Shown here one piece after another: positions 1,908 to 57,593 of a stretch of 64,000 bases of DNA (positions are counted from its first letter, which is position 1; every line of letters begins with the position of its first letter). This stretch comes from an uncultured virus (IMG/VR IMGVR_UViG_3300009502_000040) (Duplodnaviria > Heunggongvirae > Uroviricota > Caudoviricetes). Under the pieces are notes generated by a model. It was not told the origin of the DNA, did not search any database, and worked only from the letters and a program-made list of their open reading frames with translations. A program made the position numbers and the translations under genes. Location: the IMG/VR virus record IMGVR_UViG_3300009502_000040. One strand, given 5' to 3'.

Positions 1908-2087
1908 TTAATTAACCCCTATATTAAATCGTTGAAAACATTTTTCGCAACATAAATTAATTGATCCACCACCACTTGCACCTTCAATCATATTTCCACC
2001 ACATGATGGGCATTTATTATCTTCGATGAAACTAATTTCCCAGTTTGTAGCTGACTCACCAACTTTACTTCTTTTTGGGGTTAGCAT
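1908..2087 (-). CDS. 59-aa zinc-ribbon protein, 3' end coincides with IS607 junction
   Basis: Manual translation MLTPKRSK...KCPSCGG...CCEKCFQRFNIGVN*; last codons lie in the IS end. Confidence 0.65.
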   Translation of the reverse strand: MLTPKRSKVGESATNWEISFIEDNKCPSCGGNMIEGASGGGSINLCCEKCFQRFNIGVN

Positions 2088-2409
2088 TTATTTTTTTCAT
2101 TTTTTTCCTTCGTTCTCGTTTAACATCGACATACTCATTCGGAAAATTATCATAATCCAGAACTGGTTTATCACATGCTGTTCGCATCCATTCGAGTGTC
2201 GTTTTTAAATCAGCAATCGGATCATCAATATCATCATCCTCATAAACCCTTGGATTCATAGATTCTTCAGTACAAGAATCTGGATTATTATTATCATCAT
2301 AAAAAACTTCATACAATCCAAATTCAATTATGGTTGTATCAATTAAATCTTTACCTACTCGTTTTTTAGTCTTGATTCTTTTTGCTAATACTCTGTGGTT
2401 CCAATGCAT
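2065..2409 (-). CDS. Hypothetical phage protein with C-terminal RxxKLxxI-type tag
   Basis: MHWNHRVL...; ends RRKKMKKINANPKKK. Confidence 0.75.
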   Translation of the reverse strand: MHWNHRVLAKRIKTKKRVGKDLIDTTIIEFGLYEVFYDDNNNPDSCTEESMNPRVYEDDDIDDPIADLKTTLEWMRTACDKPVLDYDNFPNEYVDVKRERRKKMKKINANPKKK

Positions 2410-2515
2410 TTTTTAAATATTTTTCAACATGATAAATAACATCACTTGGTTTAACTACTTCCTTTCTTCTTCAACCTTTTCCTTTGGCATTTGTTCAAGA
2501 ATTGTTTTCAATTCT

Positions 2516-2947
2516 TTAATCGATACTGATTTTTTCATATATCTTATTTAGTTTTAATTTTCTGTTTTGTTTAAGAATTTCTGGAAATTGATCGGGATGA
2601 ATTAATCTTCTTGCCCAAGAATTCAAATGATAGTTCCATTGTTTATCTAAAATTGTATATCGATATTGAACAGATTCGGTATTATCATTTATGCCCCATG
2701 GGTCAAAAACTTCTTTAATTTTTTGATTGAAACTATCATATTGGTGTATATCACATTCTTCAATATGCTTATTAATTTGTATTTTAATATGAATTAATAA
2801 ATGTTCAAAAAATTCATCATACAAAAAATAATATTCTTTTCGTAATTCAGGTGAACATAAATGATCCAATTTTAAATTGTACCACCTAAGTAATGGTTCT
2901 CTTTCCTGTGGTGTAATTTCGTATGGAATACTAATTGGCGGAAGCAT
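2516..2947 (-). CDS. Hypothetical protein with RxxKLxxI tag
   Basis: ends RKLKLNKIYEKISID. Confidence 0.75.
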   Translation of the reverse strand: MLPPISIPYEITPQEREPLLRWYNLKLDHLCSPELRKEYYFLYDEFFEHLLIHIKIQINKHIEECDIHQYDSFNQKIKEVFDPWGINDNTESVQYRYTILDKQWNYHLNSWARRLIHPDQFPEILKQNRKLKLNKIYEKISID

Positions 2948-3146
2948 CTTTCTTCAATGTTGGGAATAATTTATAAAATCTCTTCCATGCAGTCTTTCTA
3001 CATTTTTTAGGGTATCTAATTCTACCACCGTTATGTAAATTACCAGTTCCAGTATTTCTATATGTTTTATTATCTTGCCGTGGTAATTTTGGCATAGTAT
3101 TATAATATGAAGAATTATAAAAACTATAAATAAAGAATTCCCTCAT
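2931..3146 (-). CDS. Small basic hypothetical protein (true start probably MPKLPRQ)
   Basis: ORF track; overlaps next gene start. Confidence 0.55.
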   Translation of the reverse strand: MREFFIYSFYNSSYYNTMPKLPRQDNKTYRNTGTGNLHNGGRIRYPKKCRKTAWKRFYKLFPTLKKDASAN

Positions 3147-3220
3147 GACATACTTTATTTTAATAACTGTTATAATATTAATAGATAATGCTTGAAATTA
3201 ACAATAACTATAATTAATAT

Positions 3221-3766: not shown

Positions 3767-4354
3767 TTATTTTCTGTTAAATTGTGCCTGAAGTCTTTCA
3801 CGAACCTCTTCAATGTTTGTACCATCATATCGTACAACATTCGGATGCTTGAAATCTTTGTTGTGTTCATGTGCTGGCATGATCACCAAACCCCTTGGTC
3901 TGTGTTTCAACCAAGCTTGAATATACTCTGGAAAATCATCAACCAGCACCCAGCCATAAACTAATCCTTTATCATTGGTGATGGTTACGCCATTAATATA
4001 CTCCTTCATATTTTTATGGCACCATTCGACTTTTTCAGACCAAGCTGAAAATTTTCTGGATGGGCCTTTTGTGAGCACAACTATTTTGAATCCAACTTTC
4101 TTCAATTCCACAAGAACATCAAACCCAAGCTTAAATTTTTTCAATTTAAGCCACCAACCAACCTGTGACGTGATCATGTGTCTACGGGCTTCTAAATAGC
4201 CTCCACCCTTATAAATATCACCGCTGTTAATTGGCGGCTCATTTGGTGATGCAATTTTCTGGAGGTCTATTTCTAACTGACCATCATAATCGGCACATGT
4301 ACCATCCAAATCTACTAAAGCAACTTTTTCGATTTCGGCTATTTTTTCAATCAT
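3767..4354 (-). CDS. HAD-superfamily 5'(3')-deoxyribonucleotidase-like protein (NT5C type)
   Basis: DLDGT motif I, LT motif II, K, LVDD motif IV, C-terminal HN. Confidence 0.8.
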   Translation of the reverse strand: MIEKIAEIEKVALVDLDGTCADYDGQLEIDLQKIASPNEPPINSGDIYKGGGYLEARRHMITSQVGWWLKLKKFKLGFDVLVELKKVGFKIVVLTKGPSRKFSAWSEKVEWCHKNMKEYINGVTITNDKGLVYGWVLVDDFPEYIQAWLKHRPRGLVIMPAHEHNKDFKHPNVVRYDGTNIEEVRERLQAQFNRK

Positions 4355-4938
4355 AAGTCAAATCTATTGGAAAGTTTAAATTTATCATATTCTGTCATAC
4401 ATATTTTTTGAGTTAAAAATCTGATATCTGAAAGTTTGAAGCACAAAAAAGCATCGCCTTCATATGCCCCAAGCGAAATAAGAAATGACTTTATGTCTTT
4501 AAATATTACATCAGAAACATCATCAGCACAATCATCGACAAAAAGGCACATTTCATTATCGTTAACGCCATTTAAATAAAATTCAAAATTACAAATTTTT
4601 TTATATAATGTCTCATTATTAATTATTATCTTTTTTTCAAAAAAAATGAGCCTTATCCATTTAGATTCGATATGAGCATCAACATTTGGGTGAGCAACTG
4701 AAAGATAATCTTCATCGGCATCAACAAGCTGGCAAATAAAATTGAATAACGATTTTATAAAATTGTAATATAATTTTTCTGTGATTCTTTTGATTGGTTT
4801 AATATTCATATATGGTCTCTTCCATTCATCTTCAAATCTTCGCTTCTGCTCTTCTACAGACAATACAGAATTTATACTTTTGGCTGAGCTTATAGAATTT
4901 TTTATTCTATCATTTTCTTTTTTAGAATATTTTTTCAT
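4351..4938 (-). CDS. Hypothetical protein with C-terminal RFDL tag
   Basis: ends KLSNRFDL*. Confidence 0.75.
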   Translation of the reverse strand: MKKYSKKENDRIKNSISSAKSINSVLSVEEQKRRFEDEWKRPYMNIKPIKRITEKLYYNFIKSLFNFICQLVDADEDYLSVAHPNVDAHIESKWIRLIFFEKKIIINNETLYKKICNFEFYLNGVNDNEMCLFVDDCADDVSDVIFKDIKSFLISLGAYEGDAFLCFKLSDIRFLTQKICMTEYDKFKLSNRFDL

Positions 4939-5186
4939 AAGTCAAATTTTTTAAAATTTCTATTTTTTTCGTATTCGAGATTACTTTCCTTAAAATGCTC
5001 ACGCTTAAAATAACTTAATGCGCCTATTGATGTTCTTACATAATATGGTGCATTTGAAAACGTGGCATTGTTTCCATTTGGAAAAATTCTTAAAACTTCA
5101 GTCTGCTCAATTTTATCATCATTGAACGCTGTCGCCAATCCAACCTTTATACCATTTAATTCCTGTACGGTTTTATATTTTTTCAT
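4935..5186 (-). CDS. Hypothetical protein with C-terminal KFDL tag
   Basis: ends NRNFKKFDL*. Confidence 0.75.
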   Translation of the reverse strand: MKKYKTVQELNGIKVGLATAFNDDKIEQTEVLRIFPNGNNATFSNAPYYVRTSIGALSYFKREHFKESNLEYEKNRNFKKFDL

Positions 5187-6610: not shown

Positions 6611-6886
6611 TTAGTTAATAATGATTGAATAATACTTTGTTAATTGAGAGTGCAAAGATATAAATAGTTTTTGGATAAAAAAAATTAAGTTTACATAAAA
6701 ATTAAACTTTCGTGTTTTAAAATTTATTCCGCTCACATTATCAAACATACCATTGGAAACTCTTTTCATAAGGTCAACCCTTTCATCAAGTTGAGCTAAT
6801 AGATCAACCACATTTGGAAATTTGAATAAGTGACAACCAAACTCATTAGGATCATTAATTTTAAAATCTTCTTTATGTGTTTCCAT
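6611..6886 (-). CDS. Hypothetical protein (C-terminus runs over next promoter, may be extended)
   Basis: ORF track. Confidence 0.5.
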   Translation of the reverse strand: METHKEDFKINDPNEFGCHLFKFPNVVDLLAQLDERVDLMKRVSNGMFDNVSGINFKTRKFNFYVNLIFFIQKLFISLHSQLTKYYSIIIN

Positions 6887-7280
6887 TTTCCTTGGAATTT
6901 ATTTTTTTAAGTTTCTTATTTCTTGATTTTTTATATTTTTCAAAATACTCATTAAGACCCGATGTCATATCTGGACCAGTTAAAATAAAATGAGCATCTG
7001 ATAATATTTCAGTCAATGCCCTTACTTGATCATTCACCCAAAAAACCCACGAATCTTCTTCTTGATTAGTTGTACCCTTAGGTAACCTATCAATTCTTTT
7101 TAGATAATTTTCTATACTCTTTAAATATTGTATCCAGTCGGGTAGGACGTAATATTTTTTATCACCGTTTGTATACGCTTGGGATTCTTCTACAATATCT
7201 TCCAGATCATGAGAATTATACTTTTCTAATAATTTAAAATGTTCTTCTGTGATAAGAACAACTAAAGATTTCTTTGCCAT
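6873..7280 (-). CDS. Hypothetical protein with RxxKLxxI tag
   Basis: ends RNKKLKKINSKENGNT. Confidence 0.75.
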   Translation of the reverse strand: MAKKSLVVLITEEHFKLLEKYNSHDLEDIVEESQAYTNGDKKYYVLPDWIQYLKSIENYLKRIDRLPKGTTNQEEDSWVFWVNDQVRALTEILSDAHFILTGPDMTSGLNEYFEKYKKSRNKKLKKINSKENGNT

Positions 7281-7287: not shown

Positions 7288-7620
7288 CTATTTTTTTATA
7301 TTATCAATAGCTTTCAAATACTGATCTTTTGATAAATATTGATCAACACTTTTATACCAATCTTCATATTTACACTCACCATTTTCTGGATATATAAAAT
7401 CTATACCCCTATAAATAACTTCAATCTCATCCCCGTCTGGAACAACCCCTGCACGATATTTATAGACATAAACTTCACCGTCATAACTACAATCATCATA
7501 ATTAGTTTTTATATATCTAACCCATGCGCCTTCGAAATCGGATCGGGCGTTTTTGTTAACTTTAAATCCATATTCCGCCATTGCGGTTTTTAATTTATCA
7601 TTTTTTTCCATTTTTATCAA
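7288..7620 (-). CDS. Hypothetical protein
   Basis: ORF track; likely start at MEKND. Confidence 0.7.
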   Translation of the reverse strand: MIKMEKNDKLKTAMAEYGFKVNKNARSDFEGAWVRYIKTNYDDCSYDGEVYVYKYRAGVVPDGDEIEVIYRGIDFIYPENGECKYEDWYKSVDQYLSKDQYLKAIDNIKK

Positions 7621-9027: not shown

Positions 9028-10905
9028 TTATTTTACATCTTCATATTCAATATCAGAAACGTCCCCAGACTCCGTTTTTAAATGGTCATCAGGTTGTTGT
9101 TGAGTCTGTGCCTGTGAGTATAATTTCGAGCTGATACGATTCCAAACCTCGTTCAATTCTTTGGAATATTTGTCCAGATCAATCAGATTCTGGGTCTTGT
9201 GAGACTCTTTCAACTTCAAAATCATAGAATTTAATTCGTTCTTATCGGTTTCAGTCAATTTATCACCAAGGTCCTTAATCTGTTTTTCGGTTTGGAAAAT
9301 CAATGAATCAGCCTGATTGAGTTTATCAATCTTTTCTTTTTCCTTTCGATCATTTTCGGCATTCTGCTCGGCTTCCGCTTTCATTCTCTCAATATCATCT
9401 TTTGAAAGTGATGTGGAACCTTCAATACAAATTTTGTTCTCTTTTCCTGTAGCCTTATCTTTAGCTTTAACACTAACAATCCCATCATTAGATACCGTGA
9501 AATCAACCTCAATTTGAGGTATTCCTCGTGGTGCAGGGGGCAAATTATCCAATGTAAATTCACCTATTTTTTTGTTATCCTTTGCCATTGGTCGATTCCC
9601 TTGAAGGACTACGATTTGTACTGATGGCTGGTTATCGGATGCTGTACTAAAAACCTGTGATTTTGAAATCGGTATTGTACTGTTACCCTCTATCATGATG
9701 GTTGACACCCCACCGTATGTCTCTATCGATAAATTTAATGGGGTTACATCGAGTAGGAGTATATCTTTATTTTCACCAGAAATAACAGACCCCTGAATAC
9801 ACGCCCCAGTCGAAATGGCATAATCTGGGTTAAGATTTCTATTAGCTTTTTTACCATCAAAGAATTCTTCAATCTTTTCTACAAGATACGGTACCCTTGT
9901 TGTTCCACCCACCAGAATTATTTGAGATAACTCAACTTTTTTCTTTTTTCCATCCGTAAGAGCCTTTTGGCAAAGCTCCAATGTTTCTTTAACATAAAAA
10001 TCGATAAGTTGATTCAATTTTGCACGGTTAATTTTTTTTACCAGATGTCTTGGAATACCATCAATAACCGTAATATATGGCAAATTTATTTCAGTTTCAA
10101 CAGTTGATGAAAGTTCAATCTTAGCTTTTTCAGCAGCTTCAACCAATCTCTGGAGTGCGAATGGGTCTTTACGTAGGTCAATATTGAACTCTTTTTGAAA
10201 TTCATCTGCGATCATATTGACAATTGCCTCATCAATCAAATTTCCACCTAAATCGAGTGACCCAGCCTGAGATATAGTCTCATATAATTCGTTAGATATA
10301 TCAATAATTGAAATGTCGGTTGTGCACCCACCTGAGTCAATGACCATATACAAATTACCATCTTTGCTCTTATCACTAATGTTTAATGCGCTTGCGGTAG
10401 GTTCTGAGATAATTCTTTCTACTTTAAACCCAGCAATTTCAGCAGCTTGGCGAGTACTTGCCCTCTGATCGCTATTAAAATATGCAGGGACCGTAACTAC
10501 ACAGCGGCTGACTTCTTCACCAAGATAGTCCTCAGCAGTTCTCTTAATTTTCTGTAAAATGATAGCTGAAATTTCTTCTGGTGAATATACTTTATCGCCA
10601 ATCTTAACAGCGGCTCTGCCATTATTATCAACAATCTGATAAGGTCTTTTCAGATGTTTAACTTCATCGTATGAACGACCAATCAATCTTTTAATATTGA
10701 ATATTGTATTCTTTGGGTTCAGTGCAGCTTGACGCTTTGCTGGTTCTCCAACTTTCATTTCATTTGTTTTTTCATCCCATGAAACAATGGATGGGGTGTT
10801 GCTTGAGCCTTCAGAATTTGGTATTACAGTTGGTTGCCCACCTTCCATAACAGATACAACGCTCATGTAACTTCCCAAGTCAATTCCAATAATTTTATTT
10901 CCCAT
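9028..10905 (-). CDS. dnaK: Hsp70 chaperone DnaK (divergent)
   Basis: GIDLG, TPS, KRLIG, TVPAYF, EPTA, LVGG, DVTPL, PPAPRGIPQIEV motifs across 625 aa. Confidence 0.95.
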   Translation of the reverse strand: MGNKIIGIDLGSYMSVVSVMEGGQPTVIPNSEGSSNTPSIVSWDEKTNEMKVGEPAKRQAALNPKNTIFNIKRLIGRSYDEVKHLKRPYQIVDNNGRAAVKIGDKVYSPEEISAIILQKIKRTAEDYLGEEVSRCVVTVPAYFNSDQRASTRQAAEIAGFKVERIISEPTASALNISDKSKDGNLYMVIDSGGCTTDISIIDISNELYETISQAGSLDLGGNLIDEAIVNMIADEFQKEFNIDLRKDPFALQRLVEAAEKAKIELSSTVETEINLPYITVIDGIPRHLVKKINRAKLNQLIDFYVKETLELCQKALTDGKKKKVELSQIILVGGTTRVPYLVEKIEEFFDGKKANRNLNPDYAISTGACIQGSVISGENKDILLLDVTPLNLSIETYGGVSTIMIEGNSTIPISKSQVFSTASDNQPSVQIVVLQGNRPMAKDNKKIGEFTLDNLPPAPRGIPQIEVDFTVSNDGIVSVKAKDKATGKENKICIEGSTSLSKDDIERMKAEAEQNAENDRKEKEKIDKLNQADSLIFQTEKQIKDLGDKLTETDKNELNSMILKLKESHKTQNLIDLDKYSKELNEVWNRISSKLYSQAQTQQQPDDHLKTESGDVSDIEYEDVK

Positions 10906-10957: not shown

Positions 10958-11203
10958 TTATATGTCATTTTGTCCGTTTAGTTTAAAAAATTTAGTTAGT
11001 GAATCAATCATTTGCCTTGCATTCGCCATATCAAGAGGTGTGATTACCGAATCTATATCTAACGATCTAATTAATTCATCCAATTCTTCGATAAGACCAT
11101 CATCAGGGATAGCTAAATTTTCAAGTTGCATTAATTTTCGTTTTCTAAGTTCTTTTTTCCTAAAGAATTTAGCATGTTCAACCAATTTCTGGCGGTGATT
11201 CAT
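10958..11203 (-). CDS. Hypothetical protein (internal RKRKLMQL)
   Basis: ORF track. Confidence 0.65.
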   Translation of the reverse strand: MNHRQKLVEHAKFFRKKELRKRKLMQLENLAIPDDGLIEELDELIRSLDIDSVITPLDMANARQMIDSLTKFFKLNGQNDI

Positions 11204-11324
11204 CTTTTAATTTTTTTAATTTTTCGACCCTCTTTTTTCTTAATGCTTGCTTATCTAAAACATCTACTATTTGTTTCAGAACATCACTAATATCTTTAAG
11301 TGTTATTGGATTTTTAATTTCCAT
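11178..11324 (-). CDS. 48-aa protein with RxxKLxxL tag
   Basis: Manual translation MEIKNPITLKDISDVLKQIVDVLDKQALRKKRVEKLKKLKDESPPEIG. Confidence 0.7.
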   Translation of the reverse strand: MEIKNPITLKDISDVLKQIVDVLDKQALRKKRVEKLKKLKDESPPEIG

Positions 11325-11700
11325 TCAACTTACTTATTTTCATTTTACGAATTTCAGATTCAGTATAAAAATAATCATTGAAAAGTCTTTTACGAATTTT
11401 TGATGGAATTTCTTGATCACCAAGTTGCTTTAAAAAAACAACAGTCCCACTTCGATGTGAATTTGGATTTTCACATTCAATATTCCAATACCGCACTAAA
11501 ATTGTGCTGAAACCTTCAACCTCTTGATATTTAGAACCATGAACATTATCACAACCATATGCTTGCCCACATTTAAATGTTACAATTTCAATTCCATTAG
11601 AAAATTTGTGATGAAAATCTTTCTTACAAAGAGCCGTAAACTTAGATTCTAATTGTGTTTTTTGACCAAAATATCGTGATGATTGTGCAACTACTGGCAT
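11314..11700 (-). CDS. Hypothetical protein with RxxKIxxL tag
   Basis: ends YFYTESEIRKMKISKLNGN. Confidence 0.75.
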   Translation of the reverse strand: MPVVAQSSRYFGQKTQLESKFTALCKKDFHHKFSNGIEIVTFKCGQAYGCDNVHGSKYQEVEGFSTILVRYWNIECENPNSHRSGTVVFLKQLGDQEIPSKIRKRLFNDYFYTESEIRKMKISKLNGN

Positions 11701-12029
11701 GATTCATTTTCTTTTAATTTTTCCAATTTTTTGATTCGTTCTTCACGTTTTCTTTTCTTAACCAATATTGGAAGTAATTTGTTTACTCTATCTATGGTAG
11801 CATTTGTTTTCTTTATGGATCGTTCCAACGACCAATCCATTATTGGTAATGCTATTAACATCAGAATAATTAATATTGGAGCACCAACAAATAATAAAAT
11901 ATATGGAGCACCAATAACCCACCATGACCAATTTATGATACCAAATATATTTAAAAAAGATAATGGCATTGGTGCCATAAAAATTAAAAATCCTATCCAT
12001 TGAAATATTTTTAATATTTTTTTTGTCAT
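11691..12029 (-). CDS. Membrane protein with RxxKLxxL tag
   Basis: Hydrophobic N-terminal half; ends RIKKLEKLKENESCQ. Confidence 0.75.
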   Translation of the reverse strand: MTKKILKIFQWIGFLIFMAPMPLSFLNIFGIINWSWWVIGAPYILLFVGAPILIILMLIALPIMDWSLERSIKKTNATIDRVNKLLPILVKKRKREERIKKLEKLKENESCQ

Positions 12030-12038
12030 TTTGGCAGA

Positions 12039-12371
12039 TTAGGTTATAGTATTATTTATCTTATCAAGTTTTAATTTTCTCTGGTGAACATCTATAAAAT
12101 AATCGCCAAAATATTCATAAAAATCATTTTTTAGTATAGATGATTTAATTTTATTTTTTACAAATGAAAATCTCATTCCAGGAAGCACATCTATCAATTT
12201 TCGTTTACTACTATTATTATAATCAATCATATCTTCCGCATGGTAATACACATAAATAATGTCTTCGGTAACATCAAGTTTGGCTGCTCTTGTATATGTT
12301 TTACCAGCATGAAATGTTCCAAAAGAGCCTTCATATGTTTTTATACAAATATATTTAACGTTAAGTTCCAA
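12039..12371 (-). CDS. Hypothetical protein with RxxKLxxI tag
   Basis: YICIK...GKTY...YF..; ends RKLKLDKINNTIT. Confidence 0.75.
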   Translation of the reverse strand: MELNVKYICIKTYEGSFGTFHAGKTYTRAAKLDVTEDIIYVYYHAEDMIDYNNSSKRKLIDVLPGMRFSFVKNKIKSSILKNDFYEYFGDYFIDVHQRKLKLDKINNTIT

Positions 12372-12704
12372 GTTTTTTCAATTTTCTTTTTCTAAGTTCT
12401 GAATCCGAATAAAAAATATCATTATAGTCGGCCCAATCTCCTCTCCCCCTTTTTCTATCTTCTTCAACATACGGTTCTTGACCTATATCTTTAAATAAAA
12501 ATGCCCTCATAAAGTTGCCCCAAAACTTTTTTCAGAAGAGCTTACTGCTAAAGCTACCGCTGTTCTTTCATCATTCCAATAATCACAAAAAGTAATAATA
12601 TAACTTTTATCAACAGCAAAATCCAAAGACATTTCAGACATAATTCTACTTGAATAGTTCTTTTTACAAATTACTGTATCACCAACGTTAAACGGTAGTT
12701 TCAA
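12361..12704 (-). pseudogene. Frameshifted gene of the VICKK...ELRKRKL family
   Basis: 5' part 12507-12704 continues in the -1 frame after an A6 run (12527-12532) to ...FYSDSELRKRKLKKLGT* at 12361. Confidence 0.6.
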
Positions 12705-12735
12705 TTTTTTTAAGTTTTAATTTTCTAACTTCCTA

Positions 12736-13287
12736 TCATAAACCTTCAATCTTTTTTAACTTAAGCTGCCTGACAAGTGCTTTTGTATCATTTGGGTAAG
12801 CCTTAATTGAGGCTTCTTGAACAATATCTTTAAGTGGTGGCTTGTTAATTATTTTAACATTCTCAAAACATCCCATAAATTCAGTATAAATACTGGATAT
12901 TTTAGTATCTAAATATTTATAAAATATTCTTGGTGCAGGAAACCCAACAACAAAATTACCGATATCAGCAACTTTGTCATAACAAATTTTATAAATTAGA
13001 GTCATTTTAATCGTTTGACAACTATTTCCTTTATCTTCTTTATCAATAGAAAATCCCCACCCATATTCATTAATAAAGAATACTAATTTTCTACCGTCAT
13101 CATTTTTAGGCGGAGAATATACAGAAAATCCAGCACACACAAAAAATTCTCTAAGGTCTTTGAATGCAATATTCCATATTCTTTGTTCATCCGATTTGCA
13201 TTTTTTTTGAAATGCAATTTTATTTTTTTCTATGATCGAAAATTTTGTTGCGAAATCCCTTGGTGTATGAAATTTATATGCTGCCAT
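12736..13287 (-). CDS. Hypothetical protein with RxxKLxxI tag
   Basis: ends VRQLKLKKIEGL. Confidence 0.75.
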   Translation of the reverse strand: MAAYKFHTPRDFATKFSIIEKNKIAFQKKCKSDEQRIWNIAFKDLREFFVCAGFSVYSPPKNDDGRKLVFFINEYGWGFSIDKEDKGNSCQTIKMTLIYKICYDKVADIGNFVVGFPAPRIFYKYLDTKISSIYTEFMGCFENVKIINKPPLKDIVQEASIKAYPNDTKALVRQLKLKKIEGL

Positions 13288-13615
13288 TTATTTCTTGAAG
13301 TTTTTTTGTTCTTAACCACTTTTGATCTACCTTAAAATTAAAAATACAATTTATGTAATCCTGAGACAATTTCATAACATTATGAAAATGGTACTCATAA
13401 TTAAGCCCACGTTTTCCAACAATCGTTAAGAAACGACATTGCTCGTCAAAAGAAAATCCATCATGCTCACCATTTTCAAAAATAATAGCAACCCCACGCT
13501 TATTACTATGGGTAAAGTCATCATATGTATCATATACGACACCTATTGCGCCAGCATCATTACCTAAGCAAGATACCAATAATTTAACTTGAGTTCCAAC
13601 TATCATTTGATTCAT
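13274..13615 (-). CDS. Hypothetical protein with RxxKLxxI tag
   Basis: ends LRTKKLQEINGSI. Confidence 0.75.
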   Translation of the reverse strand: MNQMIVGTQVKLLVSCLGNDAGAIGVVYDTYDDFTHSNKRGVAIIFENGEHDGFSFDEQCRFLTIVGKRGLNYEYHFHNVMKLSQDYINCIFNFKVDQKWLRTKKLQEINGSI

Positions 13616-13672: not shown

Positions 13673-13680
13673 TATATTTG
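13673..13680 (+). promoter_or_regulatory. Bacteroidota-type sigma70 -7 element TAnnTTTG (representative of 9 copies)
   Basis: Also at 15960, 18200, 22000, 24713, 25496 (+) and 3728, 6043, 6653 (-), each just upstream of a gene start. Confidence 0.7.
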
Positions 13681-13695
13681 CACAAATTACACTTC

Positions 13696-14019
13696 ATGAA
13701 TGTAAAAATAAGTTATTCCGTTGAAAATAACATAAGATATCGGGAAATTTTTTTTGAAGAAAAACCGCCAAATGAAATTGAATTGGTCAAATTTCTAAAA
13801 GAATATGAATGGAATAAGCTCAGTGTTATTAAAAATGGAGTGCTGCGAGGGCCGTTCTACACCAGATTTGAAAAGGGGCACAATGATTTTGGACCATGTT
13901 TCAAAGAAAACAACACCGAAGTTTATATGATCAACGATGAAGAGCTGACCCATGATGACTTCATGAAGTATCAAAGAAAAGAAAAATTAAACAAAATCAC
14001 TAAAAATAAAAAGCCATGA
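13696..14019 (+). CDS. Hypothetical protein with RxxKLxxI tag
   Basis: Start moved to ATG 13696, downstream of the promoter motif; ends RKEKLNKITKNKKP. Confidence 0.75.
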   Translation: MNVKISYSVENNIRYREIFFEEKPPNEIELVKFLKEYEWNKLSVIKNGVLRGPFYTRFEKGHNDFGPCFKENNTEVYMINDEELTHDDFMKYQRKEKLNKITKNKKP

Positions 14020-15873: not shown

Positions 15874-15992
15874 ATTAGTATCATTATTTTTTGTTATATA
15901 TTAATTTTCAGCCTGTTCATTATTTTTTGTATATATTTTTTTTATTCAACAATTATTTCTATTTTTGCCATCAACATTTAAATATTAAATAA

Positions 15993-17252: not shown

Positions 17253-17255
17253 AAA

Positions 17256-25520: not shown

Positions 25521-25790
25521 ATGGAAGAAGTAAGAATTACCGAACTCGAAGAAGGAAAATATTATACCTTATCACTTGATGTTAAAGAAAGATATAATTC
25601 AAGTGGTGTTAATATTATTGAAGTGAAAGTTCTAATTAAATTAGGGCATTCAATAAAACTACATTTAATAGCTAAAAATTCTGAAGTGTGGTACTCAACA
25701 AATATCAGAATTTTATTATTTGATGAAATTCCTCCAAAATATTTTAGAAAAGATAAATTAAAAAATATAGAAAAAAATTTAGAAGAATGA
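25521..25790 (+). CDS. Hypothetical protein with RxxKLxxI tag
   Basis: ends RKDKLKNIEKNLEE. Confidence 0.75.
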   Translation: MEEVRITELEEGKYYTLSLDVKERYNSSGVNIIEVKVLIKLGHSIKLHLIAKNSEVWYSTNIRILLFDEIPPKYFRKDKLKNIEKNLEE

Positions 25791-27262: not shown

Positions 27263-27515
27263 AATAAATCTAAAAATGATATTAAAAATTAAAGTATCTC
27301 CATATACGACAGAAGCGGTTGAATTATTAGCTAAAAAACTTAAATGGAAAGAAGTAAGCCGTGGTGTTTGTCAAGGATTCGTTGGTCTTGGCGGATGCAA
27401 AAATGATAAGTTTATCATAGAATATGACATTCCAAGTGATGATAGTGATTTTTCTGCCAGCGTAGAATTTGAAATCATAAAAAGTGATTATTCCATTGAA
27501 TATAAAGAATTATGA
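27237..27515 (+). CDS. Hypothetical protein (start probably MILKIK)
   Basis: ORF track. Confidence 0.6.
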   Translation: MTMMGYHFKINLKMILKIKVSPYTTEAVELLAKKLKWKEVSRGVCQGFVGLGGCKNDKFIIEYDIPSDDSDFSASVEFEIIKSDYSIEYKEL

Positions 27516-27703
27516 AGCACTACCAATGTAATATCTGCGGAGAATTTTTTAATTTATCTATAGGTACTAAAAGCTATTTGGTTAAATTAACTGCATCAAT
27601 CTGTCCAAAATGCAACTCATTTGAAATCAGTTTAACACCTCACGGAATTCGCCAATTGGAAAGAATAAGTAAAATAAAAAAACTAAATGAAAAAGAACAC
27701 TAA
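27512..27703 (+). CDS. Zinc-ribbon protein with RxxKIxxL tag
   Basis: CNIC...CPKC; ends RISKIKKLNEKEH. Confidence 0.7.
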   Translation: MKHYQCNICGEFFNLSIGTKSYLVKLTASICPKCNSFEISLTPHGIRQLERISKIKKLNEKEH

Positions 27704-28060: not shown

Positions 28061-29149
28061 ATGATAGATAGAACACCAAAACTCGACTTTAACGATTTAC
28101 TCATACCGCCAGCACCTTTAAGTGAAATTACTTCACGAAAAGAAGTTAATGTTTTTGATCAGAATGGAATGCTTCCTCTTTTCACAGCACCAATGGATAC
28201 TGTAATCAGTCTTGAAAATTATAAAATTTTTGAAGACCAGAAAATTTATCCAATTTTACCAAGAACTACTCAGGTTTCAATTGATACTCATTCTGGATGG
28301 GTTGCGCTTAGTTTAAAAGCATTTGAAGAATACTTTGGTAAATTTGGTGGAAGTCAAACACCAAACTATTGGCAAAAAGGATTTGTAGGTAAGAAGTATA
28401 TTCTTTGTGATATTGCAAACGGTCACATGAAAAAATTAGTTGATATCGTTAAAATAGCCAAGTCACACTACGGAGATGATCTTGTATTGATGGTTGGTAA
28501 TATTGCAAATCCTAAAACATTCGGAATACTAAATGACGCTGGAGCAGATTATATTCGTGTAGGTATTGGAAATGGTGGTGGATGCTTAACAACACAAAAC
28601 ACTGGGATCGGGTATCCTATGGCATCACTAATTGATGAAATAAGAACCATGTTTCCATTCACTAAAGCTAAATTGGTTGCTGATGGGGGAATGAAAGATT
28701 ATCCAGATATCTATAAAGCATTAGCACTTGGAGCAGATTATTGTATGGTAGGGTCAATTTTAAATAAAGCTTTGGAGTCTGCTGGGGATACCTATTTCGC
28801 AAACATTCACCATCCAGACGGAACAACAGAACCTGGGAATCAGATTGACCAGTATTCAGAAGAAGCTAAATTAGCCCTTAGAATTCATGGTACCCGCCTT
28901 TACAAAAAGTTTAGGGGGATGAGTACTAAAGAAGTACAAAAAATAATAGGGAATGGTACATTGAGAACATCTGAAGGAATCACAAAAATGCAAACTGTAG
29001 AATATTCACTTTCTGGTTGGGTTGAAAATTTTAAAGACTACTTAGCTACACACATGTCTTATGTTGGAAAGAAAACATTAAGTGATTTTATTGGTAGAGT
29101 TGACTTAATTACAATTTCTCATGAAAGTCAAATGAGGTTCAAAAAATGA
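28061..29149 (+). CDS. guaC: GMP reductase / IMP dehydrogenase family (no CBS domains)
   Basis: TAPMDTV, DIANGH, GNIA, VGIGNGGGCLT catalytic loop, ADGG, FRGMS, SEG; GMPR vs IMPDH not resolvable by eye. Confidence 0.75.
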   Translation: MIDRTPKLDFNDLLIPPAPLSEITSRKEVNVFDQNGMLPLFTAPMDTVISLENYKIFEDQKIYPILPRTTQVSIDTHSGWVALSLKAFEEYFGKFGGSQTPNYWQKGFVGKKYILCDIANGHMKKLVDIVKIAKSHYGDDLVLMVGNIANPKTFGILNDAGADYIRVGIGNGGGCLTTQNTGIGYPMASLIDEIRTMFPFTKAKLVADGGMKDYPDIYKALALGADYCMVGSILNKALESAGDTYFANIHHPDGTTEPGNQIDQYSEEAKLALRIHGTRLYKKFRGMSTKEVQKIIGNGTLRTSEGITKMQTVEYSLSGWVENFKDYLATHMSYVGKKTLSDFIGRVDLITISHESQMRFKK

Positions 29150-29349
29150 ACCAGCGTAAATTAGTAAGCAAACTAACAGCAGCCGCAAATCTTATAAAGA
29201 TTAGTGGAACAACTTCAAAGGCTAATTGGGCAGTTGTAAAAAACCCATTAGCCATTGAAGAAGTAAAACGATTCATGGACGAACAAGATAGAAAAACCAA
29301 GAATTATATTAGGAAAACTAAGATAAATAAATTAAATTGGAAAAAATAA
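29146..29349 (+). CDS. Hypothetical protein with RxxKIxxL tag
   Basis: ends RKTKINKLNWKK. Confidence 0.7.
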   Translation: MNQRKLVSKLTAAANLIKISGTTSKANWAVVKNPLAIEEVKRFMDEQDRKTKNYIRKTKINKLNWKK

Positions 29350-29372: not shown

Positions 29373-30104
29373 TCATTTTTCACAGTAATATCTCATCTCT
29401 ATTAACTGATTTAATAAATCATTAGTATAATAGTCAGGTGATAAGCAATTACTTTTAGTTACAGGAGCTTCCACTGGATTAATTTCAATATCTTTTTGAA
29501 AAAGCCCCTTGAACAACATTAAAATTTTATATTTTGATTGGCATTCTGGGTTTGCAAGCGTTGTGACGTTATTGTAAGCCCCCCAGTTATCTATTATTTT
29601 TTCAGCCCATTTTGCCCATTCTAATGTAGTATTTCCATTCCAAAATTGGTTGGTATATCCATTTATTGTGCCTTCAGAATTTAAAAACCATTCCAAGAAT
29701 GAACATTTTGTTTCATCTTCAAACCCAATAATTGAAGTCTTTATTATTTTAGTGTTATGAACTGAATTTTCACGTGCTAATTTTTTAGACATCCCGTATG
29801 GGGTATCATCAGGTTCATCTGTATCTGGATGAATAATTTTAGCACCTAAATTATCAAGCCAAATAGGTAATTTAAAATTAACTTCATTGTACATCTTTTT
29901 ATCTGGCTTCTTCTGGGGGATTATACCAATAGCATTTATTATAAAATCTGCTTTACAATCAGACACGAACTTCTTAAAAGATTTGGAGGGCCATCTATGG
30001 ATTGTTGTAACAACAGAATATCCTTCTTTGATAAAATATCTTAGGCACATATTTCCAAGCATACCTCGGTGCCCCAAAACTAAAATTTTAAATTTTTTGT
30101 TCAT
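29373..30104 (-). CDS. RmlD-like NDP-keto-sugar reductase (SDR)
   Basis: GHRGMLG Rossmann motif, YGMSK. Confidence 0.8.
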   Translation of the reverse strand: MNKKFKILVLGHRGMLGNMCLRYFIKEGYSVVTTIHRWPSKSFKKFVSDCKADFIINAIGIIPQKKPDKKMYNEVNFKLPIWLDNLGAKIIHPDTDEPDDTPYGMSKKLARENSVHNTKIIKTSIIGFEDETKCSFLEWFLNSEGTINGYTNQFWNGNTTLEWAKWAEKIIDNWGAYNNVTTLANPECQSKYKILMLFKGLFQKDIEINPVEAPVTKSNCLSPDYYTNDLLNQLIEMRYYCEK

Positions 30105-43705: not shown

Positions 43706-44164
43706 TCAGATGTTTCCAATTTTTTTATCTATCTGTTCAATTTTTAACTGGCGTTCTCTCTTAATTTTATACCCAAGCGGTATAAATTCCTCAATTAAAG
43801 AATATCTATCACACAAAATTTCATTTTTTGTAACATAATTCTCATTATAATCATTAGTTCCAAAACAATCTGTTCTTAATGATATAATTTCATCCCAAAT
43901 TTCTGATGTTGCTATACGATATTCTTGCCAAACATTTTCGGCAACTTTTATATGAATAATTGCCCTTGAGAAAATAATAGGCGCACCACCCTCTACAGAA
44001 ATGCTAAGATTTCCATCCTTTCCACTTTTTAACCACCTTAAAACAATATTACTCAACTTCTTTTTAAATGCTGGTGTACATATATACGAACCTAAATGTG
44101 GATGCGTGTAATATGATGATTCTTTCATTGAAACAAACTTACCATTTAAATAAATATTAGCCAT
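43706..44164 (-). CDS. Hypothetical protein with RxxKIxxI tag
   Basis: ends RQLKIEQIDKKIGNI. Confidence 0.75.
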   Translation of the reverse strand: MANIYLNGKFVSMKESSYYTHPHLGSYICTPAFKKKLSNIVLRWLKSGKDGNLSISVEGGAPIIFSRAIIHIKVAENVWQEYRIATSEIWDEIISLRTDCFGTNDYNENYVTKNEILCDRYSLIEEFIPLGYKIKRERQLKIEQIDKKIGNI

Positions 44165-52690: not shown

Positions 52691-52798
52691 TTATTTTGTT
52701 ATTAATTGCAGTTTTCGCAATTTTTTTATTCTGGAGAGCCTTACTATCTCAAAGTATTCATTAAATGCTGGTTCCGTACTTTGAACTTTAAATCCCAT
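52691..52798 (-). pseudogene. Remnant or mini-gene with RxxKLxxL tag
   Basis: MGFKVQSTEPAFNEYFEIVRLSRIKKLRKLQLITK*; upstream in-frame sequence from ATG 52903 contains several stops. Confidence 0.5.
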
Positions 52799-53855: not shown

Positions 53856-54722
53856 ATGTTAAAAGATTATTCTCAATACTTAATGGAAAATATAAAAACT
53901 CCAACGCTTAAGGTTCCAACAGATCAGGAAGTAGAAGAAGCAGAAAAAATATTGGCAGATGATGTCAATCCTGACTGGGATGCTAAAAATGGGTATTTTA
54001 TTATTGATGTATCTGGTAAATATCACGTATACTATACATTATGGAGATATAAACCATCGATGGCAAATCAATATATCAGTTCAATGGTTTTTATAACAAA
54101 TTTAAGTACCGATTTTTTGACAGCGGTAAATAAATCCAAAAAAATATGCGGGAGAACTCCTATAATAATCGATAAAATTGGATCACATCAAGGATTATTC
54201 AAAGCTCAAAAATCACAAATCTTAACTTTCGGAAAATATCGTGGAAGCACAATGGGTGAAGTTTTTGCAACAGACCCAAAGTATTTAGTATTTATGGCAA
54301 ATAAATACGAGGGTGGGAATGCTGAAAGAATGGCATTATTTCAATTTTACAAATCTCTTTATTTTGAAAATGTAACTAAAGAAAATCGTGAAAAAGGAGT
54401 ATCACAATATGTTGGTAATGTTGGTGACGAAATTGAAAAAGAATTCACACTATATAAAATGGAAAAGGTAGCTGGATTCAATGCTGGTGACCCACCTTCA
54501 AATTTACTGAAATTGAGGGATGATGATAAAAATCAATACACCATTTATTACAATAAAGAAATATCACCTGATACAAAAATTGGTGATAAAATAGTGATAA
54601 AGGCAAAAATTAAAAGCCATTATGAAACTCTTGGGCTTAAATATACCAGACTCTATTATCCAAAAAATTTTGTAAATAAATCGCTTAATAAAAGAAATGC
54701 AATAAATAGATTCGATTTGTAG
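53856..54722 (+). CDS. Protein with FGKYRG domain, OB-fold-like C-terminus and RFDL tag
   Basis: LTFGKYRG...DPKYL; SQYVG.VG...; ends AINRFDL*. Confidence 0.75.
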   Translation: MLKDYSQYLMENIKTPTLKVPTDQEVEEAEKILADDVNPDWDAKNGYFIIDVSGKYHVYYTLWRYKPSMANQYISSMVFITNLSTDFLTAVNKSKKICGRTPIIIDKIGSHQGLFKAQKSQILTFGKYRGSTMGEVFATDPKYLVFMANKYEGGNAERMALFQFYKSLYFENVTKENREKGVSQYVGNVGDEIEKEFTLYKMEKVAGFNAGDPPSNLLKLRDDDKNQYTIYYNKEISPDTKIGDKIVIKAKIKSHYETLGLKYTRLYYPKNFVNKSLNKRNAINRFDL

Positions 54723-54748: not shown

Positions 54749-54904
54749 ATGGGTAGACCAAAAATTTCAAGTAAGAAAGTTGCAATTTCTTTAACTATCA
54801 ACACCGAATTGGATCAGTTGCTGGATAAGATTGTTGAGGAAAAGAAGCTATCAAAATCACAATATATTGAGGCTTTGATAAAAAAAGATATTCATAAACA
54901 TTAG
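54749..54904 (+). CDS. Ribbon-helix-helix protein (51 aa), near-duplicate of 7598-7762
   Basis: Manual translation MGRPKISSKKVAISLTINTELDQLLDKIVEEKKLSKSQYIEALIKKDIHKH. Confidence 0.85.
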   Translation: MGRPKISSKKVAISLTINTELDQLLDKIVEEKKLSKSQYIEALIKKDIHKH

Positions 54905-54916
54905 TAAAATAAGTTA

Positions 54917-55684
54917 TTACTGGATTAGGTTACTATAATAATGAACGCCCTTGATCTTAAAATCGAAAATAAATTCATCTGGTAAAGATGAGGACATTAT
55001 TCTTACTTCATTGTTTTTAATTATACATTTCATTTTCACATTTATTTCATTCCCCCAAAAATCAAAATTAAATGCTGCATCTTGTACAAATTCATTTTCC
55101 CAAATAATTGATGACTCTTCTTTTCTTGCCAGTAATGTTAAATAGCGTGTTCCATATTGAAACAATTTCTTTTTTCTGTGAATTTCAAATGTATCACCGA
55201 CATTCAAAGATTTTATATCAGCTATTCGATCTTCGGTGATCATATACCCTTGATATTCTAAATGCTTATATGATAATATATTCCTCTTGGGGTGATCTGT
55301 ATGTATAATCTTGTAACAAAGATAATCTTTATTCTTCGCCCAGTGCTGCTCTTGATTTATCGTACTAATAAATCGCACCACTTCTGATAGCGTATCTTTA
55401 TTATTAATATATATTTTTTCAATATTAACGGAATTGCTTTGATGTTCTATAATAGTCCACAACCTGATAATTTTAGAATGGTTATAGGTAATGAAATATT
55501 TGTCACAGAACAAGATATTATATTTCACATCCAAGATAAATTCTGGAAACATCTTTCTCAATTCGCTCAATTTAACTTTATTATAATACTCCCAGACTTG
55601 ACCCGTACTTAATTTATCAGGATTTATGACGAAAAGGTTCATTATAATAATGGAATTCTTAAAGAAAAAGATAAAATTAGGCAA
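54917..55684 (-). CDS. Hypothetical protein (start probably MNLFVI)
   Basis: ORF track. Confidence 0.65.
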   Translation of the reverse strand: MPNFIFFFKNSIIIMNLFVINPDKLSTGQVWEYYNKVKLSELRKMFPEFILDVKYNILFCDKYFITYNHSKIIRLWTIIEHQSNSVNIEKIYINNKDTLSEVVRFISTINQEQHWAKNKDYLCYKIIHTDHPKRNILSYKHLEYQGYMITEDRIADIKSLNVGDTFEIHRKKKLFQYGTRYLTLLARKEESSIIWENEFVQDAAFNFDFWGNEINVKMKCIIKNNEVRIMSSSLPDEFIFDFKIKGVHYYSNLIQ

Positions 55685-55732
55685 CAGGAGATTACCAATT
55701 TTTTAAAATGTATATTTATAAGAATAAAAGAC

Positions 55733-57289
55733 TCATAAGGCAATTTTTCTTTCATCAAAATCGAATTTCTGTTTCTTATAGATTTCATCTCTTCGGGATT
55801 CATAATGAGATATTAATATTGTCTTTATGCCTGGATAAAAAACATCGACTAAATCAAATACAACGAGCTTGGCTTTTTCGGAATGTATACGCATTCCACG
55901 TCCCACCGACTGCATCACAACACGGAAACTTTTATAACTATCGCAGAATACAATATTTGTGATAGCACGAATAGATACACCAGTACTCAATGTTCCATAT
56001 GAGGCAACAAGTATTTTTGGGTTTCCACTTGTATCTTCCATCATTTTTTTTATATACTCTCTTTTCTCATTCTTAATGCTCCCATCAATAAAATAAATAT
56101 CTTTACCAACGCAATTATCTCTCAAAAAATCATATAGGTCGGTGCCATATTCAATTGTATGAAATAATAAGAGAGAATTTTGCGTGAATTTATCTACTAA
56201 CACTTTAATAAACTTTTTTCTTTTTGCAGAATTGTGGATATATTCACGTTCCAAATGGAACGCTTTGGCCCCGTCAAATTTTCTTATTTTTGCAACTCCA
56301 TTAGCAAATTCTCTATTGTTATGTTGCAACATTATTGCTTTTATTTTGATGTTAGTTATTAGTCCTTTATCCATCAAACTACGGGCACTAATATTGACTA
56401 AAATTGGGCCCATCAAAGATTCTATGGTGAGAATTTCAGACGTAGTTGTGTCAGGAAAAGTTCCGCTCATCCCAAATCGCATTTTTGCTGTCCCAAACGT
56501 GCGGCTTAAAATTGATATTAAAGATTGTGCTTTTGCAAGATGGCTTTCGTCACAACAAACAACATCAAACTTAGAAAAAAAATCACGCTGTTTTTTTTCC
56601 AAACTTTGATAAGTTCCAATGAAAATATTTGCTTCTTGTTCACCATGGTATTTTCGTGGATTATCCGACATTATTTCTTCAATTTTTATTTCCATAGGAT
56701 TTTTATTTTCATTTTTAAATCCATAATTATAATCCATTATATCATTATAAAATTGAGTTACAAGATTTATATTTGGAACAATCAATAGAAATTTTGCCTG
56801 AGGATTAATAAATTTCAAATAATAAAAAAGCAATGAACCATATATTAATGACTTACCCCCTGCCGTAGCAACTTGCAAAAGACCGTAATGATATTTTAAA
56901 ATTTGATAAATACCATCAATCTGATGATCGTGCGGGGTAAATGGACTTAAACCGTCTTGTGTTTTATGATCTTTGAAAAAATCTTTAACAAAAGCATCAA
57001 TTGTTTCTCTTGTTATACTTAGATCAATAGGAAACTGCTCTTGGTTTTGAATAATAAATGGATATCCATATTGCCTACAACACTTGTAGACTTCGTTCCA
57101 TAAGCCAAAATCCATAAAACCATCTTTGAAATAGTCTATATCACCATTCCATAGACCTAATTTAAATCTTGGACTAAAACGGTAATTTTTTACTTTTCTT
57201 GTTAAGAACAATTTAAGCTGGTTTAGTTCAGCCTTTGTGCTTTCAACTAATATTATTTTAGAATTATCTGCATTAAGTTTTAATTTCAT
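55733..57289 (-). CDS. uvsW: SF2 DNA helicase, T4 UvsW-like
   Basis: WNGDI, ATAGGKS, TYQSL, DESH, GMSGT, STGVSI, QSVGRGMR. Confidence 0.88.
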   Translation of the reverse strand: MKLKLNADNSKIILVESTKAELNQLKLFLTRKVKNYRFSPRFKLGLWNGDIDYFKDGFMDFGLWNEVYKCCRQYGYPFIIQNQEQFPIDLSITRETIDAFVKDFFKDHKTQDGLSPFTPHDHQIDGIYQILKYHYGLLQVATAGGKSLIYGSLLFYYLKFINPQAKFLLIVPNINLVTQFYNDIMDYNYGFKNENKNPMEIKIEEIMSDNPRKYHGEQEANIFIGTYQSLEKKQRDFFSKFDVVCCDESHLAKAQSLISILSRTFGTAKMRFGMSGTFPDTTTSEILTIESLMGPILVNISARSLMDKGLITNIKIKAIMLQHNNREFANGVAKIRKFDGAKAFHLEREYIHNSAKRKKFIKVLVDKFTQNSLLLFHTIEYGTDLYDFLRDNCVGKDIYFIDGSIKNEKREYIKKMMEDTSGNPKILVASYGTLSTGVSIRAITNIVFCDSYKSFRVVMQSVGRGMRIHSEKAKLVVFDLVDVFYPGIKTILISHYESRRDEIYKKQKFDFDERKIAL

Positions 57290-57593
57290 TAATTTGCCTT
57301 AATTTTCTTTTTCGTTGATTGCCTAATCTATTTTTATAATAAATATATTCAAAGCCGAATCTCTTATATAGTCCTAAAATTCCATTTTGTTCTTCACCAC
57401 ATTTACTACAATATTTATGCTTGATAAGCCCGTCCCAGTCATCATTAAACGTTAATAATAGAATATGCTTATGTGAAAATGGCGAAGATGGGAATCCATT
57501 TATTTCATCTAACATCCAATTCAATGTGATTTGCTCAATAAACCGCCATCTATGATATACACATTTATGCCACATCTTATTTATATCCACCAA
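57273..57593 (-). CDS. Hypothetical protein with RxxKLxxI tag
   Basis: ends RKRKLRQINEIKT; sits between helicase and upstream gene. Confidence 0.7.
   Translation of the reverse strand: MVDINKMWHKCVYHRWRFIEQITLNWMLDEINGFPSSPFSHKHILLLTFNDDWDGLIKHKYCSKCGEEQNGILGLYKRFGFEYIYYKNRLGNQRKRKLRQINEIKT

Follow-up and report, generated by a model that had tools for sequence, protein, structure and literature searches.

The cargo-loading peptides of encapsulins and the encapsulation peptides of bacterial microcompartments (BMCs) are short terminal peptides or helices that stand apart from the folded body and are shared by unrelated cargo. In phage T4, the capsid targeting sequence (CTS) stands at the N-terminus and is removed by the prohead protease, and the docking peptides of AAA+ machines, such as SspB XB and the MuA tag for ClpX or the Rubisco C-terminus read by the MoxR/vWA pair CbbQ–CbbO, are basic and hydrophobic C-terminal tethers that bring unrelated proteins to a single machine. 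The PIP-box and the T4 clamp-binding tail have a C-terminal [LIM]-x-x-hydrophobic-aromatic core with basic flanks (consensus Q-x-x-[LIM]-x-x-[FY][FY]) and occur on many proteins that are otherwise unrelated, replication and repair proteins among them. Here we describe an octamer, R-x-x-K-[LIM]-x-x-[IL], that lies close to the C-terminus of many small proteins encoded in a 64,000-nucleotide stretch of DNA, called the window throughout, from an uncultured virus of the Caudoviricetes (IMG/VR record IMGVR_UViG_3300009502_000040). Structure models and sequence comparisons indicate that, in a defined class of accessory proteins, the octamer forms the core of a C-terminal helix that is exposed, portable and acts at the protein level, and that this tag is maintained by selection across a clade of giant phages.

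The C-terminal octamer in the window and in related phages

We detected the octamer in 17 window open reading frames (ORFs) of at least 30 amino acids (aa), which were confirmed in a listing of all window ORFs of that length; it sits 2–9 residues ahead of the stop codon and is followed by N in 8 of the 17. The first-pass annotation of this DNA, made from the letters alone, had listed 18 such ORFs. Seventeen are present, and the other, placed at 12688 with RKLKLKKI, has no counterpart, as no frame over 12640–12800 ends in this way; 16 of the listed left coordinates are exact, and the ORF given at 13696 runs over 13678..14019 on the plus strand. For counting, a greedy, non-overlapping ORF set was built longest-first from ORFs of at least 25 aa (103 ORFs, 95.5% of the window), and an ORF was scored as tagged if the octamer fell within its last 20 residues. 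This was the case for 15 of the 103, the small tagged ORFs 11178..11324 and 52691..52798 having been dropped by the greedy set, compared with a mean of 0.40 when the last 20 residues of each protein were shuffled (maximum 4 in 2000 rounds and 3 in 200 rounds). C-terminal windows held 15 motifs in 1,339 and internal windows 2 in 18,352, so the C-terminal enrichment held against both controls. The tagged ORFs, all found by the regular expression, are as follows.

2065..2409 (-): 114 aa, RRKKMKKI at 2089-2112, 7 residues before the stop; matches phrog_21321
2516..2947 (-): 143 aa, RKLKLNKI at 2540-2563; no Pfam or PHROG match
6873..7280 (-): 135 aa, RNKKLKKI at 6900-6923
11178..11324 (-): small ORF of 48 aa, RVEKLKKL at 11208-11231; outside the greedy set
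11314..11700 (-): 128 aa, RKMKISKL at 11326-11349; last 43 aa similar to 12361..12510
11691..12029 (-): 112 aa with two hydrophobic segments, RIKKLEKL at 11715-11738; the only window carrier with transmembrane-like segments
12039..12371 (-): 110 aa, RKLKLDKI at 12057-12080; matches phrog_31110
12361..12510 (-): 49 aa, RKRKLKKL at 12370-12393
12736..13287 (-): 183 aa, RQLKLKKI at 12748-12771; no usable Atlas match
13274..13615 (-): 113 aa, RTKKLQEI at 13289-13312
13678..14019 (+): 113 aa, RKEKLNKI at 13975-13998; left end listed earlier as 13696
25521..25790 (+): 89 aa, RKDKLKNI at 25746-25769
27512..27703 (+): 63 aa, RISKIKKL at 27662-27685
29146..29349 (+): 67 aa, RKTKINKL at 29311-29334; next gene, 29373..30104, on the opposite strand
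43706..44164 (-): 152 aa, RQLKIEQI at 43730-43753
52691..52798 (-): small ORF of 35 aa, RIKKLRKL at 52709-52732; outside the greedy set, may not be a real gene
57273..57593 (-): 106 aa, RKRKLRQI at 57291-57314; immediately upstream of the gene for the UvsW-like helicase

The bodies in front of the octamer had been described as unrelated, and BLASTP found no similarity among them at E≤0.05 except between the 11314 and 12361 ORFs. Ninety-six window proteins were scanned against Pfam, and none of the 15 tagged ones among them had a match at E≤0.001, in keeping with the earlier remark that no recognisable enzyme ends with the tag; the two that match PHROGs do so with families without assigned function. 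Since the gene that follows the 29146 ORF lies on the other strand, the tag needs no downstream same-strand gene.

An identical ORF rule (longest-first, at least 35 aa) and the same regular expression were applied to five related records: G001 (256 kb, 36% complete and syntenic with the window) and the four near-complete relatives G003 (676 kb), G004 (640 kb), W01 (LR756501) and W02 (LR745206). Tagged ORFs numbered 114 of 480 in G001 (tail-shuffle mean 2.0), 162 of 1156 in G003 (4.3), 108 of 1012 in G004 (3.7) and 112 of 985 in W02 (3.9), all far above the shuffles, whereas W01, with 1 of 1060 (2.4), lacks the tag. Carriers were also present at 12 of 23 IMG/VR loci around the polymerase gene. 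While R1, K4 and positions 5 and 8 are set by the regular expression itself, unbiased counts of C-terminal patterns in the window and W02 returned R..K, R..K[LI] and R..K...[IL] as the most enriched, and across the clade the distance from tag to stop is 0–12 residues. The remaining positions vary with lineage: at position 2 the window, G001 and G003 share K, and W02 has D instead; at position 9 the residue is N for the window and G001, but F for G003 and L for W02. The tag had been called an amphipathic basic helix, and a helix is indeed predicted, but it is not polybasic as such: only R1, K4 and positions 5 and 8 (with 9) are kept clade-wide, and position 2 is usually Asp in W02.

In W01, 44 of the 1060 ORFs terminate with (R)(V/I)F(S)xxDPYGEExW, for example 499642-506309 and 552409-555773; synonymous codons vary in these tails and only one pair of the bodies is similar. 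At 145582-146127 a capsid-protein-like frame is broken by an in-frame stop right behind a DPYGEExW-type tail, and both halves are tailed. A few W01 tails, as well as G003 tails such as ...KLKNIFDDENDGIWDV, join the basic helix to the acidic aromatic end, and we infer that the R-x-x-K and DPYGEExW forms may be one evolving tag.

Over the 17 window tags, Arg is encoded by AGA (9), CGA (3), AGG (3), CGT (1) and CGC (1) and position 5 by TTA, CTT, TTG, CTA, ATA, ATT and ATG, both matching window-wide usage, and Leu is drawn from both the TTR and the CTN families. The R1 codons of G003 (AGA.44, CGA.22, AGG.17, CGT.08, CGG.05, CGC.04) are likewise near genome usage. Because the Arg and Leu codon families at the tag follow general usage, selection appears to act at the protein level, and conservation at the nucleotide level, which the first-pass annotation had named as the alternative, is not borne out. 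Of the 666 reciprocal best hits between G003 and G004, 99 involve a G003 carrier (out of 162 carriers); the strict tag is retained in 89 of these 99, and most of the other 10 show a near-miss. The 89 pairs tagged in both genomes were selected for having the motif, which makes conservation of positions 1, 4, 5 and 8 circular; 88 of them retain Arg, 47 of these with a changed codon, and position 9, which lies outside the regular expression, is 80% identical compared with 56% for the bodies. In the family of the 2065..2409 protein, 9 of the 10 members are tagged, with identity falling as low as 44%. Tagged ORFs terminate with all three stop codons, which rules out stop-codon recoding and polyproteins.

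Carrier proteins and the phage that encodes them

One G001 carrier is a Tad3-like protein from a family with 2597 members at E≤0.001. We aligned 22 sequences, 21 of them chosen among the 150 matches listed and mostly aligned end to end, and 20 stop right after the body, with an extension only in the G001 protein and one close relative. The tag is therefore an add-on in this family, as the modular peptide put forward in the first-pass annotation would be. AlphaFold modelled the body of the Tad3-like carrier with a predicted local confidence (pLDDT) of 80–98 (at least 89 in all but two blocks), followed by a short linker and then the tag in a separate helix at 178–189 (residues 171–190, pLDDT 72–74). 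In the 2065..2409 protein the body reached 83–90 in most blocks and 73 in one, with a terminal helix at 91–109 at 59–68; a fold search with this model gave no match at E≤0.001.

We scanned 112 of the 276 carriers of G003 and G001 against Pfam (77 from G003 of at least 115 aa and 35 from G001 of at least 100 aa, restricted to those contained in a single sequence piece) and obtained four matches: ankyrin repeats in a G003 carrier, Acb3, a CBASS inhibitor (E = 2.6e-25), Tad3, a Thoeris inhibitor (E = 1.4e-35), and a weak SAS4 match below its cut-off. Carriers are short (median 88–115 aa) and have few transmembrane-like segments, which were found in 6 of 162 carriers compared with 90 of 780 other ORFs of up to 250 aa in G003 (p 0.0015) and in 2 of 114 compared with 38 of 294 in G001 (p 0.0003). 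Orthologue identity between G003 and G004 is 58.8% for carriers and 78.2% for the remainder. Only one of the 15 window carriers could be matched to a homologue in G001, and G003 and W01 gave no match for any of them, while most untagged core genes have homologues. Among the carriers are several fragments or paralogues of proteins of the head or tail; those resembling head proteins in W01 are 11314 (protease-like), 145891 and 552409 (capsid-like) and 619760 (scaffold-repeat), and others related to head proteins are G001_167695 and W02_207176 (the C-terminal half of the capsid protein), G001_3722 and G003_223891.

Transcription units were classed by promoter motif. TAnnTTTG, given as the Bacteroidetes promoter motif in the available portion of PMC10309648, precedes many transcription units. 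The motif TAATATATA lies 25–35 nt upstream of sheath and baseplate-like genes, with a variant ahead of the protease-scaffold gene, and by analogy with T4 may be taken as a late promoter of the clade. T(T/A)AATATATA, found 25–35 nt upstream of many gene starts in G003 (including sheath and baseplate-like genes) and likewise in the window, is probably a late promoter of the clade; in G003, AATATATA occurs without TAnnTTTG in 121 of 465 units and both motifs occur in 12 more. The carrier share was 9/243 in late-motif units compared with 59/226 in TAnnTTTG units of G003 (odds ratio 9.2, p 2e-12, Fisher), 6/149 compared with 19/92 in the first 400 kb of W02 (odds ratio 6.2, p 1e-4, Fisher), and 0/10 compared with 8/29 in the window; G001, at 12/70 and 13/58, gave no clear difference. 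The late T4 promoter TATAAATA was not enriched upstream of carriers. These profiles show carriers to be small, soluble, fast-evolving accessory proteins, mostly encoded in units with a host-type (early-like) promoter motif.

The window (30% G+C) encodes a split family-B DNA polymerase, a UvsW-like helicase, Hsp70, DHFR and NAD synthetase, as well as sugar-modifying enzymes and homing-endonuclease-like genes (Pfam and PHROG scans), and belongs to a huge phage of the T4-like kind, which has the 735-kb 'Mahaphage' record LR756501 among its relatives. The polymerase N-part is nearest in that unannotated record, at 55.6% identity, compared with 35–40% in other 460–640-kb records and 29% in the Lak Prevotella phages, and nearer relatives (74–76%) are found in IMG/VR. 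Because the closest relatives of the phage ClpS are Maribacter, Lutibacter and Sinomicrobium proteins and TAnnTTTG precedes many units, the host is likely a member of the Bacteroidota, probably of the Flavobacteriia, which agrees with the jumbo phage of a Bacteroidota host assumed at first.

We detected several further features beside these. The split polymerase occupies 40465-43655 on the minus strand, with its N-part at 40465-41940; the C-part may be an unannotated ORF of 408 aa at 42429-43655. The space between the two holds, on the opposite strand, a 125-aa protein (42051-42428) that shows 58–78% identity across all relatives and is paralogous to a protein at 20758-21306. Two repressor-like small proteins of phrog_876, at 7598-7762 (minus) and 54749-54904 (plus), are 88% identical to each other, and one is near a GIY-YIG protein (8011-8997); the pair may belong to mobile endonuclease cassettes. 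At the window edge, a serine recombinase with a MerR-type helix-turn-helix (948-1613, minus; phrog_6620, 'transposase') adjoins an open-ended 306-aa ORF (1-918, minus), and 1-1613 looks like an IS607-like element. In G003, a 974-aa protein (20528-23452) with PKD domains and a CHU_C type IX secretion signal domain is also found in G004 and W02 and is missing from W01.

Other C-terminal motifs were found in the window. A 114-aa protein without a Pfam match (26918-27262, plus) terminates with DDDDGLPF; bacterial SSB has a similar acidic tail. Five other proteins (4351-4938, 4935-5186, 37908-38498, 50997-51521 and 53856-54722), one of them with an ExoX-like exonuclease motif, end exactly with [KNS][KR]FDL-COOH, and the G001 orthologues of two of them terminate with ...KFNL and ...NFNM; this second motif is perhaps a tail for a replication-related partner.

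Candidate readers and alternative explanations

Docking to one reader is the simplest explanation of a portable, exposed C-terminal helix on a defined accessory class, and we would put even money on the tag being a docking peptide for one common cytoplasmic reader that acts on early proteins. The short helix behind the folded body would present R1, K4 and positions 5, 8 and 9, by hand count on one face, and it is this face that the reader, in the cytoplasm of the infected cell, would recognise. As to the kind of reader, a protein-unfolding or proteolysis machine is the leading but weakly held choice, and a hub of some other kind is about as likely. Such a machine could be the phage MoxR/vWA-metallopeptidase pair, or host Clp steered by phage ClpS, and would control how long early proteins last or how they are handed over. 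Also tentatively, the tag may be the visible half of a virus-encoded protein-sorting system whose dedicated reader handles a tenth to a quarter of the phage proteome. The sorted set would then be the whole fast-evolving arsenal of early host-takeover and anti-defence proteins, a new gene would become usable just by gaining a 10–15-residue helix, and the switch of W01 to DPYGEExW in 44 proteins would record co-evolution of tag and reader.

Phage-encoded candidates for the reader were judged by their presence in the related records. Phage Hsp70 is found in the window, G001, W01 and W02 and is absent from G003 (162 carriers) and G004 (108), which rejects it as an obligate reader, and ClpP was likewise rejected, being found in W02 only. 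The ClpX zinc-finger domain, encapsulin (PF04454; a control search recovered it in 3 known genomes) and the BMC shell domain (PF00936) were each detected in none of the five related records. J-domain proteins (DnaJ) are present in all four near-complete relatives. A Pfam AAA_3 search for MoxR in the relatives gave nothing above the cut-off, and a protein search recovered a MoxR-like ATPase in all four near-complete ones; that of G003 has a vWA-metallopeptidase partner, and both have W01 homologues. Because it is also found in tag-poor W01, presence of the ATPase does not discriminate. ClpS is encoded by G003, G004 and W02 and absent from W01, and lies amid tagged genes in G003 and G004; the 22 proteins with this tag-like phyletic pattern include, besides ClpS, a deformylase, a ligase and several enzymes. 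The G003 genes for these candidates lie at 184817-186520 for the vWA-metallopeptidase, 187718-189010 for the MoxR-like ATPase, 573782-574078 for ClpS and 260804-261847 for DnaJ. The pairing of MoxR with a vWA-metallopeptidase is known from group 2.2 jumbo phages, as set out in the available part of Iyer et al. 2021 (PMC7824862).

Several points weigh against docking to a common reader, some of them against an unfolding machine in particular. No reader was identified among the phage-encoded candidates judged by presence. The ORF sets are crude, making the percentages approximate, and the promoter and timing classes are motif matches only, with late-type units hardly depleted of carriers in G001. 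ClpS reads N-termini, lies outside the tagged arrays in W02, and is only one of 22 among 773 G003 proteins kept in G004 and W02 and missing from W01. Degradation of anti-defence sponges would seem counter-productive. The MoxR/vWA-metallopeptidase pair is also encoded by W01, which is without the tag, and Iyer et al. (PMC7824862, in the part available) propose a virion-assembly role for it.

An unlikely alternative is that the tag docks cargo inside a T4-like prohead, on the scaffold core or the major capsid protein, to be packed and injected with the DNA. The phages do encode a T4-like head module, with a gp23-like capsid protein beside a gp21-like protease fused to a scaffold (G003 545023-547428, W01 73913-76336) that has about 13 tandem 14-residue acidic repeats (...YSEYLAENVDNSIA...), and one W01 protein with a DPYGEExW tail has three such repeats. 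Loading of this kind would also suit the anti-defence families among the carriers and the carriers that, in four lineages, are fragments or paralogues of head proteins, and it has a precedent in the T4 internal proteins, which the accessible text of PMC3012670 describes as diverse anti-defence proteins sharing only a targeting sequence. Yet late-type units, to which the sheath, scaffold and baseplate-like genes belong, are poor in carriers in G003, W02 and the window (though not clearly so in G001), a few carriers have transmembrane-like segments, and one tenth to one quarter of all ORFs would be much cargo. The main protease-scaffold and capsid protein are themselves without the tag, which is C-terminal and has no conserved cleavage site: no L/I-x-E site is conserved at a fixed place, and E at position 7 is found in 42% of tags in G003 and 7–16% in the window and G001.

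Less likely still, the tag might hand marginally stable, fast-evolving proteins to Hsp70 through a phage J-domain protein. The gene order invites this explanation, as in the window the tag array (10958-13615) is followed directly, on its own strand, by the Hsp70 gene (9028..10905) and G001 has the same order (Hsp70 at 15784-17655, carriers from 17659 on), and J-domain proteins occur throughout the near-complete relatives. The lack of phage Hsp70 in G003 and G004, with their many carriers, and the late-type motif ahead of the G003 DnaJ gene argue against it. The predicted helicity of the tag also speaks against it, as do the Asp at position 2 and the acidic core residues of the W02 form; DnaK-binding peptides are unlike a helical tag with acidic core residues.

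We regard as very improbable that the tag is an amphipathic C-terminal helix of the MinD/FtsA type, targeting proteins to the inner face of the membrane. The MinD helix ends L-x-x-L-F-G, and the G003 core K-[IL]-x-x-I-F-G resembles it. A helix of this type would have a purely hydrophobic face; in the tag, hydrophobic residues stand only at positions 5, 8 and sometimes 9. Against membrane targeting, just two hydrophobic residues are left in the window form, where position 9 is mostly N, and the invariant R and K share a face with the hydrophobic residues (hand count). Asp at position 2 in W02 and the replacement of the tag in W01 by an acidic tail containing Pro and Gly fit a membrane helix no better.

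Common descent, with the carriers as one huge diverged family and its last helix merely the best-kept part, has just as little probability. Carriers do occur in tandem arrays, 43 of the 114 in G001 have a tagged paralogue, and the 11314 and 12361 ORFs share their last 43 aa. In G003, however, only 10 of 162 carriers have a tagged paralogue by body similarity (E<1e-4), leaving 152 without one, the tag is found on Tad3-like, Acb3-like, ankyrin and capsid-protein-like bodies, and the 20 tag-less proteins among the 22 aligned Tad3-like ones largely refute this explanation. Finally, an A-rich element or nascent-peptide signal for the next gene in tight operons, which would fit the excess of carriers with a same-strand gene at most 30 nt downstream (70% vs 54% in G003, 81% vs 51% in G001) and the commoner TGA stops (51/162 carriers vs 127/994 in G003, as with ATGA 4-nt overlaps), is barely credible given both Arg and all Leu codon families at genome usage, a variable distance to any of three stop codons, and the 14% of G003 and 6% of G001 carriers that, like window ORF 29146, have no same-strand downstream neighbour.

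Comparison with known systems

Each huge phage has hundreds of orphan genes, and the tag picks out 100–160 proteins per genome from sequence alone. The class sorted in this way is early-like, soluble and fast-evolving and includes known anti-defence families; the tag therefore serves as a handle in the search for new proteins of counter-defence and host takeover. Should one reader serve all carriers, a virus of bacteria would possess an addressing system on the scale of its proteome, with a single point at which to test, disable or exploit the whole accessory arsenal, for example by employing the tag as a portable one in Bacteroidota. The first-pass annotation knew of no described system of this kind, and we found none in the parts available of the literature, including a huge-phage envelope-protein preprint (2026), a jumbo-phage review (2026), Iyer et al. 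2021 (PMC7824862) and the marine megaphage paper; cultivated megaphage work, as far as its available text goes, concerns Bacillus phage G, which is outside the present clade. New here are the DPYGEExW variant, the add-on test in the Tad3-like family, the link to head-protein fragments, the contrast between promoter classes, the ClpS lead and the negative presence tests for readers.

Compared with encapsulin and BMC peptides, the tag has another consensus and far more carriers, and PF04454 and PF00936 are lacking in all five related records. For a docking peptide of the AAA+ kind, the phage genomes offer possible machines, namely a MoxR-like ATPase partnered by a vWA-metallopeptidase and, in some of them, ClpS. 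No phage-encoded ClpX zinc finger was found in the five records, and ClpP is encoded only by W02. The N-degron pathway of ClpS needs the N-terminal residue of its substrate, whereas the shared element here is C-terminal. The G003 form K-[IL]-x-x-I-F-G looks PIP-box-like, but R1 and K4 are invariant, position 2 is K or D, position 9 of the window tag is N, and the tag is found on none of the enzymes annotated for replication or repair. Poxvirus ankyrin proteins with a C-terminal PRANC/F-box belong to the eukaryotic ubiquitin system, and the tag resembles them in logic only, as variable binding domains joined to one short C-terminal plug; one G003 carrier is an ankyrin-repeat protein. The CTS of the T4 internal proteins I to III and Alt is alike in being a short shared peptide that, in the accessible portion of PMC3012670, is the sole common part of diverse, fast-evolving proteins that include anti-defence functions. 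The tag described here is set apart from it by its C-terminal place, 0–12 residues from the end, by its presence on 10–24% of ORFs, and by lying mostly outside late-type units.

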